A DNA stretch of 33,442 bases from an uncultured Nitrospinaceae bacterium (GTDB lineage: Bacteria; UBA8248), in the NCBI GenBank assembly GCA_964456425.1, contig CAYWAX010000002.1, positions 1-33,442 of the forward strand, given 5' to 3'. Positions 24,662 to 33,442 of this stretch are shown piece by piece (position 1 is the stretch's first letter; each line of letters starts with the position of its first letter). Under the pieces are notes generated by a model that was not told the origin of the DNA, did not search any database, and was given only the letters and a program-made list of their open reading frames with translations. A program made the translations under genes and the position numbers.

Positions 24662-25654
24662 TTAGCTATCAGATAATTTGGAAAACCAGTCTTCAGTTTC
24701 TTTTTTAATAGTATCAGATGTCCATAGAGGAGCATTTTCCCAATCCTTAAGATTATCTAACATAATTTTCACACCTGAAGAGAATGAAAATTTTGCTTCC
24801 CAACCTAAAATTTCTTTAATCTTAGAAACATCTGCATGCGTACAATCCGGCTCACCAGGTCTCTTAGGAATATATTCAATATCTTCACATTCTAGAAGTT
24901 CAACAAGTCTATTAACACTTTGTGGAGAACCTGATCCAACATTAAAAATCTCTTGTCTAACTGTGGAGTCCGCAGCATTTAAAAATGCATTCACAACATC
25001 AGAAACAAACGTGAAATCACGCAATTGAGTCCCATCTCCAACAACCGTAAGTGGTTTTTTATTAATCTTTTGAGCAAGAAAAACACCAAAAACAGCGCCA
25101 TAAGTTCCAGTAGTTCTAGACCTGGGACCATAAACATTAAATAATCTGAGCGAGATAACTGGCAAATCATAAACTTTTCCCCAATGCAAAACACATTCTT
25201 CTCCTAAATATTTAGTTAAAGCATATGGGTACTCAACTTGAATATCTGAAGATTCTGGAGTTGGATAAAGTTTAGGAATTCCATAGCAGGAAGAAGAAGC
25301 AGCATAAATAAAACGTTTCACTCCATTATTCCTAGAAAGTTCTAAAACATTCATCGTTCCTAATGAATTCACTCGAAAATAATTCTCAGGATTACTGATA
25401 GAAGGTACAATATCTGCTAAACCTGCTAAATGAAAAACCCAATCAATATTAGGAAAGTATTCTGAAATTTTTTCTTTTTCTGTAATACTTTCATCAACAA
25501 TTTGAAGATTTTTATTTGATTTTACCTCAGAAAGATTATCTAACCTTCCAGTAGACAAATCATCTATAACAATAACTTTGTGGTTCTGAAGTAAAAGTGC
25601 ATCTACTAGATGACTACCTATAAAACCAGCACCACCTGTTACCAATGTTTTCAT
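24662..25654 (-). CDS. Extended-SDR NAD-dependent nucleotide-sugar epimerase/dehydratase (UDP-glucuronate decarboxylase / 4,6-dehydratase-like)
   Basis: 330 aa with VTGGAGFIGSHLVDAL, VIVIDDLSTG, catalytic YxxxK (YALTKYLGE). Confidence 0.9.
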   Translation of the reverse strand: MKTLVTGGAGFIGSHLVDALLLQNHKVIVIDDLSTGRLDNLSEVKSNKNLQIVDESITEKEKISEYFPNIDWVFHLAGLADIVPSISNPENYFRVNSLGTMNVLELSRNNGVKRFIYAASSSCYGIPKLYPTPESSDIQVEYPYALTKYLGEECVLHWGKVYDLPVISLRLFNVYGPRSRTTGTYGAVFGVFLAQKINKKPLTVVGDGTQLRDFTFVSDVVNAFLNAADSTVRQEIFNVGSGSPQSVNRLVELLECEDIEYIPKRPGEPDCTHADVSKIKEILGWEAKFSFSSGVKIMLDNLKDWENAPLWTSDTIKKETEDWFSKLSDS

Positions 25655-25682
25655 TTTTTAAACTCATTTAAATTTTATGACT

Positions 25683-26792
25683 CTAATTTTTCTTGCCAAA
25701 AAAAGAAAAAACAGAATCTATTGTATAGTCTAGTTCCTCTTCCGTAAGATGTTGATGAGCAGGAAGAGTAATTATTTCCATGCAGTCTTTTTCTGCAAAA
25801 GGGAAATCGCCTTTTTTATAACCCAGATACTGAGAGGCCTCCTGTAAGTGAACAGGAATCGGATAATGAATTTTAGCTTCAATACCAAGTTCTTGAAGAA
25901 ATCTAAGAAGTTCGTCTCTTCTTTGTGTCCTAACTATATATAAATGAAAGACATGTTTTACGTCTTTCCTTCTTTCCGGTACTTGGATATCTCCGTTCAA
26001 TAAACTAAGAGCTTGATCGTATTTTTCTGCATTTTGTATTCTTTGTTCAGTAATAAACTTAGTTTGTTCTATTAAGCGATTTCCAATAACAGCTTGCAAA
26101 GTATCCATTCTACAATTTACACCAAAAAAACTAATTTCATCCCTATTAATCATTCCATGATTTCTATAAAGTCGGAGCTTTTCGGCTAGTTCATCATTTT
26201 CGGTCAAAATAATTCCAGCATCTCCCCATACATTAAGATTCTTGAGTGGATGAAGGCTAAATGATACTGCATCTCCCCAAGAACCAACCATTTTGTCATT
26301 TATAGAAGCACAAATTGATTGACATGCATCTTCAACAACAAACAAATTATGTTTTTTGGCAATAGAAATTATTTCAGGCATATCTGCCACATTTCCAGTG
26401 TAATGCACAGGTACAATTGCTTTAGTTTTAGGTGTAATAGCTTCTTCGATTTTACTAGGATCTATAACAAATCCGTCTTCACTATCAACAAAAACCGGAG
26501 TAGCTCCCGTCATAACAATCGCACCTACAGTTGCGATAAAAGTCATAGTAGTTGTTATTACCTCATCGCCAGGACCGACACCCAACATTTTGAGAGGAAG
26601 TCCTATTGCATCTGTCCCAGTACCAACGCCTATTCCATGCTTTGCTCCCATAAGTGATGCAAAACTTTTTTCGAATTTTTCCAGAGAGTCCCCAAGTGTG
26701 AAATCTCCGGATTCAACTAGTAATTTTATATCCTTTAAATAGTCGTCTATATCAGAAAATTGTCTATCAAGATAAGAAAATGGGACCTTCAT
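25683..26792 (-). CDS. DegT/DnrJ/EryC1/StrS-family PLP sugar aminotransferase (or dehydratase)
   Basis: 369 aa with [36 protein letters not shown] (PLP lysine), HYPIPVHLQ. Confidence 0.92.
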
Positions 26793-26811
26793 TTTGGTAT
26801 TACTCCGCTAA

Positions 26812-31992: not shown

Positions 31993-32982
31993 TTAATAAA
32001 TACCTTCAAATAATTCTTCCTCAGAAGGGAATGGACTATTCTTAGCAAAGTCAAAAGCATCAGAAATATTTTGCTCTACTATACTTTGAACATTTCTTAA
32101 TTTATTTTCTTCTAATACTCGATTTTTAATTAAATAATTTTCAAAGCTATTTACAGGACAGTTTCTAATCCAAGAATCTAATTCTTCTCTAGTACGATAC
32201 CCGACATCAATATCTTCGTTAGGCCCGACATGATCTAACCATCTATATGTTCGACACTCTATGAGTGTGGGGCCTTCTCCATTTCTAGCTCTTGCAATGG
32301 CATTTTTTGAAATTTCAAGAATATCTAAAATTTTATTTCCATCAATCCTAAAACCAGGAATATTAGAAAATTTTGCACGCTCAAAAATATTATCTAAAGG
32401 TTGTCTATTCTGAATAGAAGAATACGTTGCATATAAATTATTTTCGCAAACAAAAATTACGGGCAAATTTCGCAAAGACGCAAATTGAAGACTTTCATAA
32501 AAAACTCCTTGCTCTGAAGCCCCATCACCAAAGAAAGCAACAGCAACATTTTGCTTTCCTTGCAATTGATAAGTTAAAGCTGAACCTAATGCCAAAGGAA
32601 TTGATCCCCCAACAATAGCAGATGCGCCCATCATACCAACTTCAAGATCTATCAGATGCATTGAACCACCTTTTCCTGAAGCACATCCATCTTTTTTGCC
32701 ATAAAGTTCTGCAATCATTGCACGGAGATTTCCTCCTTTTGCAAGATAGTGACCATGACATCTATGTGTACTATAGACATGATCTTCATTATTCAAAAAT
32801 TCACAAACTCCAACAGCGCATGCTTCTTGTCCAATGGAAAAATGAACGGGGCAACGCATTTCCTGATCTGGATAAGACTCCGCAATTCTCTCTTCGACTC
32901 TTCTTATTTCATAAAGTTTTTTATAAATCTTAAGAGCAAAATCTTCATCGAGAATTAGCGATTTTTTTTCTGCTTCATTCAT
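31993..32982 (-). CDS. 2-oxoacid dehydrogenase E1 component alpha-subunit-like (ThDP-binding)
   Basis: 329 aa with HFSIGQEA, YSTHRCHGHYLAKG, ThDP motif FGDGASEQGVFYESLQFASLRNLPVIFVCENNLYA. Confidence 0.9.
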   Translation of the reverse strand: MNEAEKKSLILDEDFALKIYKKLYEIRRVEERIAESYPDQEMRCPVHFSIGQEACAVGVCEFLNNEDHVYSTHRCHGHYLAKGGNLRAMIAELYGKKDGCASGKGGSMHLIDLEVGMMGASAIVGGSIPLALGSALTYQLQGKQNVAVAFFGDGASEQGVFYESLQFASLRNLPVIFVCENNLYATYSSIQNRQPLDNIFERAKFSNIPGFRIDGNKILDILEISKNAIARARNGEGPTLIECRTYRWLDHVGPNEDIDVGYRTREELDSWIRNCPVNSFENYLIKNRVLEENKLRNVQSIVEQNISDAFDFAKNSPFPSEEELFEGIY

Positions 32983-32997
32983 TAAACAACTCCAAAA

Positions 32998-33442
32998 TCA
33001 CACCTTCAAAAGGCGTTCCATATGTTCTGAAACCATTTTCACATTAAAGTATTTACGATTATTTAATGTATCTACAAGTAATCCAGTACGAATTGCATCA
33101 GACAGTTCGATTATTGCATTATCTATTTTTCTTTGAGTCGTGAAACCAAGTATATTCTTAATTTTATCAGAACAGATATGATAAGAACGATTATCATCTG
33201 TTGGTGTCTGAACTATTTCAACGTTATCTCGACCTGCATTTTTTTGAACTAATTCTGCCAATTCCGAAACCTTATGGTTTTCTGCCCCAACATTAAATGC
33301 ATGTCCAGAAATTAATGAAGAATCAACTTCAATCAGCATACTATATAAATCTGTCAAATCCTCTATATGAATATTAGGCCTCTTTTGCTCACCTCCAAAA
33401 ACACTAATACTTCCTGTATTCACAGCTAAATTAGTAAGAATA
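32998..33442 (-). CDS. NAD-dependent nucleotide-sugar epimerase/dehydratase, C-terminal part (5' end outside the window)
   Basis: The frame is open to the window edge (ILTNLAVNTGSISVFGGEQKRPNIHIEDLTDLY...NVGAENHKVSELAE...), typical of the substrate-binding C-terminal half of extended SDR epimerases. Confidence 0.8.
   Translation of the reverse strand, partial: ILTNLAVNTGSISVFGGEQKRPNIHIEDLTDLYSMLIEVDSSLISGHAFNVGAENHKVSELAELVQKNAGRDNVEIVQTPTDDNRSYHICSDKIKNILGFTTQRKIDNAIIELSDAIRTGLLVDTLNNRKYFNVKMVSEHMERLLKV

Follow-up and report, generated by a model that had tools for sequence, protein, structure and literature searches.

The 33,442 nt contig CAYWAX010000002.1, from a metagenome-assembled genome (MAG) of an uncultured Nitrospinaceae bacterium (GCA_964456425.1) and referred to here in its entirety as the window, ends in ten minus-strand open reading frames (ORFs) at positions 24662–33442. 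On balance we favor the interpretation that these genes are the 3′ two-thirds of an operon of approximately 13 genes, acquired horizontally and conserved within its genus, and that they include a widespread cassette for tailoring a nucleotide-activated heptose-type sugar. Our best reading of the product is a two-carbon-branched amino sugar derived from a nucleoside diphosphate (NDP)-heptose and transferred, in this organism, through polyprenyl phosphate. Nucleotide-sugar tailoring is a known kind of system, and it is the enzyme set that is new: heptose-type entry enzymes, a stand-alone thiamine diphosphate (ThDP)-dependent E1 alpha/beta pair, twin DegT aminotransferases, and a radical S-adenosylmethionine (SAM) enzyme with a partner protein of the IscU fold.

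A widespread gene cassette

All ten genes are oriented in one direction with intergenic gaps of −4 to 52 nt (Table 1). A first-pass annotation, made from the DNA alone, had described ten co-directional, tightly packed genes encoding two short-chain dehydrogenases/reductases (SDRs), two DegT aminotransferases, a radical SAM enzyme, E1 alpha and beta subunits, a family 2 glycosyltransferase (GT2) and two proteins without a family. Each of these ORFs is present at the position it gave, and our assignments from Pfam and NCBIfam profile scans agree with its list; gene content and packing likewise support its description of a nucleotide-sugar tailoring operon. The enzyme set is not peculiar to this genome, but belongs to a cassette found in more than ten phyla. 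None of the operon proteins reaches an NCBIfam equivalog cut-off, and E1 beta alone passes a subfamily model, barely (324 versus 321 bits), so that curated equivalogs provide a name for none of them. In line with the annotation's suggestion of undescribed chemistry, no characterized pathway matches the cluster at the equivalog level, and literature searches (radical SAM, heptose, thiamine, pyruvate dehydrogenase, aminotransferase) found no paper characterizing the cassette.

Scanning genomes for the radical SAM family identified 80 loci in these phyla, the nearest in uncultured Nitrospinaceae (96% identity). Carriers include Azospirillum oryzae COC8, Azospirillum sp. TSO35-2, Nisaea nitritireducens DSM 19540 and Herbaspirillum sp. 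CF444, along with members of the Myxococcota, Bdellovibrionota, Planctomycetota, Chloroflexota, Acidobacteria, Elusimicrobiota and Spirochaetota, and one Nitrosotalea MAG. Across the 80 loci the radical SAM gene recurs with the same ten families of enzymes around it, and in a tblastn census nearly all of the window enzymes have homologues around that gene in other loci. The canonical order in Alphaproteobacteria is SDR_A, an HldE with reversed domains, an SIS protein, SDR_B, E1 alpha, E1 beta, DegT1, DegT2, partner, and radical SAM.

Gene families were counted in those 42 loci whose 10-kb flanks are complete. The partner gene accompanies the radical SAM gene in 40 of these, and the others are present as follows: HldE-like in 33, E1 in 32, SDR_B in 31, DegT in 30, SIS in 24 and GT2 in 12. 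E1 and DegT co-vary, with both found in 28 loci, neither in eight, and discordance in six (Fisher p = 1.5e-4); the combination of radical SAM, E1 and DegT genes that the annotation had singled out recurs, and the gene set, seen in dozens of loci from many phyla, is anything but a chance assembly. The genes are also conserved together in relatives, since all four genomes of the window's genus carry the cassette, in addition to the 80 loci elsewhere. In the rest of the family it is present in only one of 33 genomes, a pattern typical of a horizontally acquired surface-glycan island.

There are several variations in the surroundings of the cassette. A NUDIX gene follows the radical SAM gene in Azospirillum loci (eight loci). 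The partner/radical SAM pair of a further variant (L044:2191-11637) is surrounded by a pair of reversed-HldE-like genes and a second radical SAM/SPASM gene, paralogous to the first, together with a split transketolase and another NUDIX gene. A Deferrimicrobiaceae MAG (locus L013) and an archaeal Nitrosotalea MAG (L018), both from the same study, have near-identical cassettes with E1 alpha branch lengths of ~0.06, which reflects either transfer between domains in the very recent past or a mistake in binning.

The whole window is one contig of a 2.03 Mb MAG in 259 contigs, and the operon is therefore cut at the window end. A close relative (L002; radical SAM protein 94% identical) has the same genes and four more upstream, which encode a 480-amino acid (aa) protein, a 514-aa cytidylyltransferase-like/PfkB protein, an SIS protein and a full-length SDR. 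Gene order does not differ between the locus studied here and its close relatives L002, L006 and L007. In the MAG, tblastn places the 5′ remainder of the operon in matching orientation on contig C111 (L086). The gene for SDR_B would span the break: its N-terminal 137–142 residues are on C111 (C111:411-1 is 91% identical to residues 1–137 of the L002 SDR), its C-terminal part is in the window, and about 50 residues are absent between the two contigs. The operon starts on C111 with the gene for a 482-aa membrane protein, facing a divergent UDP-glucose dehydrogenase gene.

Table 1. Coordinates of the operon genes and the adjoining tRNA gene in the window.
Feature	Coordinates	Strand	Evidence and remarks
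tRNA-Sec (selC)	24539..24635	+	ARAGORN; Rfam RF01852, 74 bits; converges with the operon and marks its 3′ boundary
SDR_A, GalE/UXS-like extended SDR, last operon gene	24662..25654	-	Pfam Epimerase 1e-56
DegT_1, pyridoxal phosphate-dependent sugar aminotransferase	25683..26792	-	Pfam DegT 3e-105; SLHPLK at residue 179
DegT_2, pyridoxal phosphate-dependent sugar aminotransferase	26812..27933	-	Pfam DegT 1e-109; SLHPLK at residue 186
Radical SAM enzyme with SPASM/twitch-like C-terminal domain	27986..29095 (probable start; ATG of shorter ORF at 28993)	-	Pfam Radical_SAM 9e-14, SPASM 5e-6
Partner, C part, 243/244 aa	29121..29855	-	No Pfam/NCBIfam family; predicted cysteine-less IscU-fold domain and C-terminal alpha/beta domain
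Partner, N part, 106 aa	29852..30172	-	No Pfam/NCBIfam family; TGATG overlap with C part
Small GT2, 237 aa, polyprenyl-phosphate type (DPM1/ArnC-like)	30189..30902	-	Pfam GT2 8e-17
E1 beta	30913..31992	-	Pfam Transket_pyr and Transketolase_C; NCBIfam pyruvate dehydrogenase (PDH) E1 beta 324 bits
E1 alpha	31993..32982	-	Pfam E1_dh 2e-74; abuts the E1 beta gene with zero gap
SDR_B, C-terminal 147 residues, cut by contig end	32998..33442	-	87% identical to residues 191–337 of the L002 SDR

The radical SAM enzyme and its partner protein

Homologues of the radical SAM protein are 373–374 aa long and 72–96% identical (72–78% across phyla), whereas its cassette neighbors are only 30–60% identical. 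The cluster-binding motif CxxxCxxC is present as CNYACHFC at residues 38–45 (C38, C42 and C45) and is invariant in the family, as are five further cysteines (C209, C262, C280, C328 and C332). The Pfam SPASM match scores 27 bits against a cut-off of 21.5, and the five extra cysteines, compared with seven in the full SPASM motif, would fit one auxiliary cluster better than two. Solved relatives found in PDB sequence searches are all distant (SkfB, PqqE, DesII and BlsE). In six loci (including L010:10680-12452) a second type of radical SAM protein, with B12-binding and Radical_SAM domains, is encoded beside the cassette; this cobalamin-binding protein is probably a methyltransferase.

The start of the radical SAM gene is unusual. 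The ATG-based ORF falls about 35 codons short of the gene and does not include the conserved N-terminus (LILDGTKIxWH...); this N-terminus is encoded before the 28993 ATG, where the open frame offers no ATG, GTG or TTG. At the position of the called start, L002 and L003 have TTG, and the window, L006 and L007 have TTT (region 29086–29137). An ATT or ATC codon is shared by all five, 6 nt downstream of AGGAGA or GGGAGA; in the window it is the ATC at 29095–29093, following GGGAGA at 29107–29102. Because this arrangement is shared, we propose that the ATC is the probable start, a non-canonical initiation codon of the AUU/AUC type.

The two ORFs without a family, which the annotation had listed as two orphans, are the N and C parts of a single partner protein of the radical SAM enzyme. 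First, a distant relative (L004) has one fused 365-aa gene directly before its radical SAM gene, and the 106-aa ORF aligns to residues 4–101 of the fused protein (6e-24) and the 244-aa ORF to residues 134–365 (3e-44). Second, the split point corresponds to a variable, low-complexity linker of the fused forms (alignment A2, 39 sequences). Third, the two-gene form is found in many unrelated lineages, so it represents a natural architecture rather than an error. The overlapping stop and start codons (TGATG) indicate that the two parts are translationally coupled. The partner genes and the adjoining GT2 gene (29121–30902) have a GC content of 25–31%, compared with 33–36% in the flanking enzyme genes.

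An AlphaFold (AF2) model of the fused partner has a mean predicted local distance difference test score (pLDDT) of 89, and when its central domain is searched with Foldseek the top 50 matches are almost all IscU, ISCU or SufU (E from 8e-5; target-normalized TM score 0.6–0.67). There are no conserved cysteine columns in alignment A2, where the near-invariant residues are only Y, L, R, W, V, D, H, G, P, F, E and N, and the IscU cluster ligands are therefore absent; the window protein has three scattered cysteines in its C part and none in its N part. The model thus portrays the partner as an IscU fold without the classical cluster-ligand cysteines. Two sets of candidate partner proteins were discarded. 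Apparent fusions of the partner with the upstream gene (ORFs of 490–730 aa in high-GC loci) are artefacts of longest-ORF calling, and an unannotated 364-aa protein at locus L087 (hhalign probability 0.6%) is a TIGR04372 glycosyltransferase.

A candidate route to a branched amino sugar

There are three indications that the pathway begins with a heptose. The SIS protein of C111 and L002 appears to be a divergent GmhA paralogue, with GmhA models as its best NCBIfam matches (83–85 bits versus cut-offs of 209–265). The 514/524-aa protein contains the domains of HldE in reverse order (transferase at 23–163, kinase at 194–499), departing from the standard N-kinase/C-adenylyltransferase arrangement, and scores 157 bits against a cut-off of 521. 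Finally, the best PDB match of a full-length SDR_B relative is 6VO6/6VO8 (1.5e-41), which we take to be the heptose C4-dehydrogenase Cj1427 (a literature search gave no confirmation of this identity). Together these argue for a heptose nucleotide rather than a pentose. A GmhB-like gene is present outside the operon on contig C118 of the MAG (41% identity, 7e-42), and a GmhB-like phosphatase lies within the cluster in 17 other cassette loci (by tblastn; 13 by clustering).

SDR_B is probably a sugar-nucleotide C4 dehydrogenase, and SDR_A probably an epimerase or ketoreductase. The top PDB matches of SDR_A are UDP-glucose 4-epimerases (4ZRM, 7e-52), with UXS at 1e-39; it carries GxxGxxG and YxxxK, and its cassette orthologues are 53–60% identical. 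The D-E pair of 4,6-dehydratases is absent from both SDRs, which have SSSCYG (SDR_A) and the GalE-like SSSSVYG (SDR_B), and both fall short of the RmlB models (150 and 70 bits, respectively, against a cut-off of 365), so that neither carries the signature of an NDP-hexose 4,6-dehydratase.

The E1 pair, with alpha and beta subunits of the heterotetramer type, has several distinguishing features. E1 alpha has the ThDP motif GDG...NN at residue 152 and scores 320 bits against an NCBIfam cut-off of 394. First, no E2 or E3 gene is near the pair, and the two E2 genes of the MAG are only on contigs C39 and C17, beside other E1 pairs; the pair thus stands alone in a nucleotide-sugar cluster that is predicted to supply a keto-sugar acceptor. 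Second, the cassette E1 alpha proteins form their own clade (99/97 support), which excludes the four other E1 alpha paralogues of the MAG. Third, other ThDP enzymes take its place in sister loci, which were found from close DegT_1 homologues and whose SIS, reversed HldE, SDR pair and twin DegT genes are those of the cassette. In L087 these are two adjacent acetolactate-synthase-type enzymes (10452–14829), in a locus without a radical SAM gene, and in L088 and L044 a split transketolase. Three unrelated ThDP architectures in one genomic role argue for a ThDP-dependent carbon–carbon step on the sugar as an integral part of the pathway, and it is to such a step that this non-orthologous displacement points. 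One of the L087 enzymes has an unexplained N-terminal extension of ~260 residues, and the two are followed by the TIGR04372 glycosyltransferase and an ABC exporter. The MAG has five E1 alpha/beta pairs and two E2 genes in all; two sister E1 pairs (C5:16404-18412 and C42:6185-8152) are also without an adjacent E2, in non-glycan contexts.

DegT_1 and DegT_2 are paralogues (47–49% identical) that both retain the Schiff-base lysine, and their PDB matches resemble C3 and inosose aminotransferases. For DegT_1 these are 3UWC (519 bits), then QdtB, DesV and NtdA, and for DegT_2 they are 7B0D (2e-106), QdtB, 3UWC and DesV, with BtrR-type enzymes at 2e-41. All NCBIfam equivalogs are below cut-off for DegT_1. 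3UWC is presumably a Coxiella protein; a search for DegT_1 homologues gave 120 matches of 65–90% identity, none named Coxiella.

The GT2 is an accessory gene outside the universal core. Its homologue adjoins the radical SAM gene in 19–21 of 84 loci, and similar GT2 genes directly follow the radical SAM gene in several other phyla. The closest PDB match is dolichol-phosphate-mannose synthase (5MLZ, residues 4–225, 2e-9), followed by ArnC (3e-7). The 482-aa membrane protein encoded on C111 has about ten hydrophobic segments and belongs to a small lineage-restricted family; its model is only partly confident (pLDDT 60) because just eight homologues exist. The top Foldseek matches are ArnT, ALG12, DPY19 and PglB (best E 0.016; TM score 0.33–0.36), all of which are GT-C enzymes that use polyprenyl-phosphate sugars. 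The pairing of a GT2 like dolichol-phosphate-mannose synthase or ArnC with an ArnT-like membrane protein makes it plausible that a sugar is loaded on polyprenyl phosphate and then used for decoration, and passage of the sugar by lipid carrier to the cell surface is, in this organism, a plausible if weakly supported proposal.

We infer the following route, every chemical step of which is drawn from homology and gene co-occurrence. The GmhA-like isomerase and reversed HldE, with GmhB supplied from elsewhere, would convert sedoheptulose 7-phosphate to an NDP-heptose, which the Cj1427-like SDR_B would oxidize at C4 to a keto-sugar. The stand-alone E1 pair would decarboxylate pyruvate and add the two-carbon ThDP adduct to a sugar carbonyl, and the two DegTs, which co-vary with E1, would introduce one amino group or two. 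An early, non-amino intermediate may undergo a radical step (oxidation, epimerization or deoxygenation) catalyzed by the radical SAM enzyme together with its IscU-fold partner, and SDR_A could complete the sugar by reduction or epimerization. In this genus the DPM1/ArnC-like GT2 would then load the sugar on polyprenyl phosphate and the ArnT-like membrane protein transfer it to an envelope acceptor.

Several alternatives have to be weighed. One is that the radical SAM enzyme resembles BtrN and acts as an anaerobic-style alcohol dehydrogenase that makes a second keto group, with the two DegTs yielding a diamino sugar; the BtrS-BtrN-BtrS sequence of 2-deoxystreptamine synthesis is a parallel. The SPASM/twitch-like auxiliary domain with its five invariant extra cysteines would suit this role, DegT_2 matches scyllo-inositol and 2-deoxy-scyllo-inosose aminotransferases (7B0D and BtrR-type), and there are two DegTs to a single evident dehydrogenase, SDR_B, for keto groups. 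However, PDB sequence searches returned no BtrN match at E ≤ 0.001–0.01, the radical SAM gene is without a DegT gene in 12 of the 42 loci, and SDR_A could supply a second keto group just as well. We regard this alternative as unlikely.

A pathway of the desosamine type (DesI/DesII/DesV) would use one DegT to form a 4-amino sugar, the radical SAM enzyme to deaminate it to a 3-keto-4-deoxy sugar and the second DegT to form a 3-amino-3,4-dideoxy sugar, and could place an E1-derived branch at the 3-keto position, as in aldgarose, for which DesI/DesII-type genes are combined with an E1 pair. Consistent with this, the radical SAM gene is directly upstream of the two DegT genes, DesII is among its few solved relatives (E 6.5e-4, and 2e-3 in a second search), and both DegTs resemble the C3 aminotransferases DesV and QdtB. 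Nonetheless, the DesII equivalog TIGR04426 scores 26 bits against 450 and DesI 150 against 650, neither SDR has the D-E pair of 4,6-dehydratases, and DesII has no IscU-like partner. Moreover, the radical SAM and partner genes occur without any DegT in 12 of 42 loci, usually with SDR_B retained, so that the radical step needs no amino-sugar substrate, which weakens this proposal; we consider it unlikely.

It also seems improbable that the ThDP enzyme extends the chain through a DXS-like condensation of two carbons onto a sugar aldehyde to give an 8–9-carbon terminal-deoxy keto-sugar for amination by the DegTs. E1 is exchangeable with transketolase- and acetolactate-synthase-type enzymes, all of which are capable of acyloin condensation on aldehydes, and E1 and the DegT pair are tightly coupled. 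Against this, no enzyme evidently produces a sugar aldehyde, and SDR_B is predicted to give a ring ketone, the acceptor type of branching ThDP enzymes; YerE and the AviB1/B2-type pairs of sugar pathways add branches to ring ketones.

The annotation had heard an echo of the Arn pathway in the cluster, and the lipid-carrier logic of that suggestion is plausible, given the GT2 and the ArnT-like protein. Its proposed entry by UXS-type decarboxylation or oxidation does not stand, as SDR_A is GalE-like and there is no ArnA-type enzyme. An Arn-like lipid A modification, making a 4-amino-4-deoxy-pentose, is very improbable even though the DegTs match ArnB (~1e-45), the GT2 matches ArnC, the membrane protein has ArnT as its best fold match, and a UDP-glucose dehydrogenase gene is divergent beside the operon on C111. 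Profile scans find no ArnA (there is no formyltransferase domain, and the SDRs score 36–59 bits against 294–777, the ArnA models giving 36–44 against 777), and no ArnD or ArnE/F, with neither a deformylase nor a small flippase gene, so the aminoarabinose pathway is unsupported; ArnB models score 196–200 bits against 631 and ArnC 31 against 529, and the heptose-type entry enzymes, E1 pair and radical SAM enzyme are left unexplained. The least credible alternative, that ordinary pyruvate or acetoin dehydrogenase genes lie inside the glycan locus by chance, accords with the typical PDH-type sequences (E1 beta is just over its subfamily cut-off and human PDH E1 alpha matches at 4e-62) but not with their presence in 32 of 42 complete loci across phyla, their clade apart from the other MAG paralogues, the lack of an adjacent E2 where E2 genes adjoin other E1 pairs, or their replacement by other ThDP enzymes in sister loci.

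Several considerations nonetheless weigh against the branched NDP-heptose derivative that we prefer. First, all of the heptose-pathway assignments are below the NCBIfam curated cut-offs, and the starting sugar could for that reason be another phospho-ketose. Second, no cassette enzyme has been studied previously, and sequence does not reveal in what order the steps take place or where E1 reacts. Third, a canonical start codon is lacking for the radical SAM gene, which leaves some doubt about whether this organism expresses it. Fourth, the continuity of the window with C111 is suggested by synteny with relatives and not by an assembled join. Finally, the GT2 is found in only about a quarter of cassette loci, and the GT-C assignment of the membrane protein comes from a low-confidence model with weak Foldseek scores.

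A more ambitious proposal, which we put forward tentatively, is that the radical SAM enzyme, which is about 75% identical across more than ten phyla, and its cysteine-less IscU-fold partner constitute a new two-component radical enzyme that subjects an NDP-heptose to a reaction so far undescribed for nucleotide sugars, and that together with the ThDP enzyme and twin DegTs they make amino sugars of a new class, branched or chain-extended, on the envelopes of many environmental bacteria, related to the Coxiella CBU0674-0678 and E1 genes. Hundreds of species carry the cassette, among them cultivable strains of Azospirillum, Nisaea and Herbaspirillum. To identify the product would be to define a bacterial sugar, and probably a radical SAM reaction, that is new, and would give a function to a protein family that matches no Pfam or NCBIfam model. 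For marine Nitrospinaceae the operon points to a genus-specific surface decoration made by way of a lipid carrier.

The rest of the window codes for molybdenum-cofactor and catabolic genes, and profile scans of it find no Wzx, Wzy, Wzz or ABC exporter, as the first-pass annotation had noted. The selC gene sits exactly between plus-strand catabolic genes and the converging glycan operon, and its tRNA-Sec is the only match in an Rfam scan. L002 has kept this flank, with its M24, ADH and DUF1722 genes, so the selC/operon junction is older than the split of these species. Scans for promoters and terminators gave nothing above background within the operon. At the other end of the operon, the UDP-glucose 6-dehydrogenase gene on C111 is followed by a further SDR gene that runs off the contig end (4212–6482), and these may be part of a second sugar pathway.

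Comparison with known systems

Two-carbon branched sugars are made by YerE (yersiniose A) and by the E1 pairs AviB1/B2, AlmDI/DII and Plm8/Plm9. The cassette is similar to these systems in gene context, which was compared here rather than sequence, in that a ThDP enzyme without E2 or E3 lies among the keto-sugar-making enzymes of a nucleotide-sugar cluster, and the sister loci with acetolactate-synthase-type enzymes use the family to which YerE belongs. In contrast, the known pathways act on 6-deoxyhexose nucleotides, in actinomycete antibiotics or the Yersinia O-antigen, and have neither a radical SAM/IscU-fold pair nor a heptose-type entry. The DesI/DesII/DesV system shares the placement of a radical SAM gene beside two DegT aminotransferase genes, but its equivalogs fail widely and the cassette has no 4,6-dehydratase signature. 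The late steps of the Arn pathway, and DPM1 with GT-C enzymes, are echoed by the cassette GT2 and the membrane protein of predicted ArnT-like fold, although ArnA, ArnD and ArnE/F are missing from the operon by profile scans.

Two heptose pathways are also relevant. The capsular heptose pathway of Campylobacter jejuni is brought to mind by SDR_B, through the solved relative 6VO6/6VO8 that is presumably Cj1427, the C4-dehydrogenase that makes GDP-heptose accessible to tailoring and is followed by epimerases and reductases. The chemistry of Cj1427 has been described (PMC10680097). That pathway proceeds to GDP-alpha-heptose via HddA/HddC and has no ThDP enzyme, radical SAM enzyme or DegT pair, whereas the cassette activator is HldE-like. 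In the synthesis of the L-heptosamine of septacidin, SepI oxidizes, SepJ and SepA epimerize, and SepG transaminates (PMC9978623); oxidation of a heptose at C4 followed by DegT-type transamination is the common logic, but septacidin tailoring occurs after attachment to the nucleoside and includes no ThDP or radical SAM step.

The closest system to have been studied, though a partial one, is the O-antigen region of Coxiella burnetii, which encodes a phosphoheptose-isomerase-like protein (CBU0674), the SDRs CBU0676 and CBU0677 as well as a domain-reversed HldE, CBU0678 (PMC5843353, PMC13552124, PMC13252051). CBU0678 is needed for phase I lipopolysaccharide (LPS), with its function stated to be unknown (PMC5843353). 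The same region contains 'pyruvate dehydrogenase' genes of horizontal origin (CBU0686, 0692 and 0693; PMC5423948), and the Coxiella sugars are assigned to other genes, the C-methylation of virenose, for instance, to CBU0691 (PMC3539893). The cited papers mention no radical SAM or partner gene in this region, a difference from the cassette. By published description, however, a reversed HldE, a GmhA-like isomerase and two SDRs occur together in Coxiella as they do in the cassette. Identification of the cassette product could also account for genes of unexplained role in the Coxiella LPS region.

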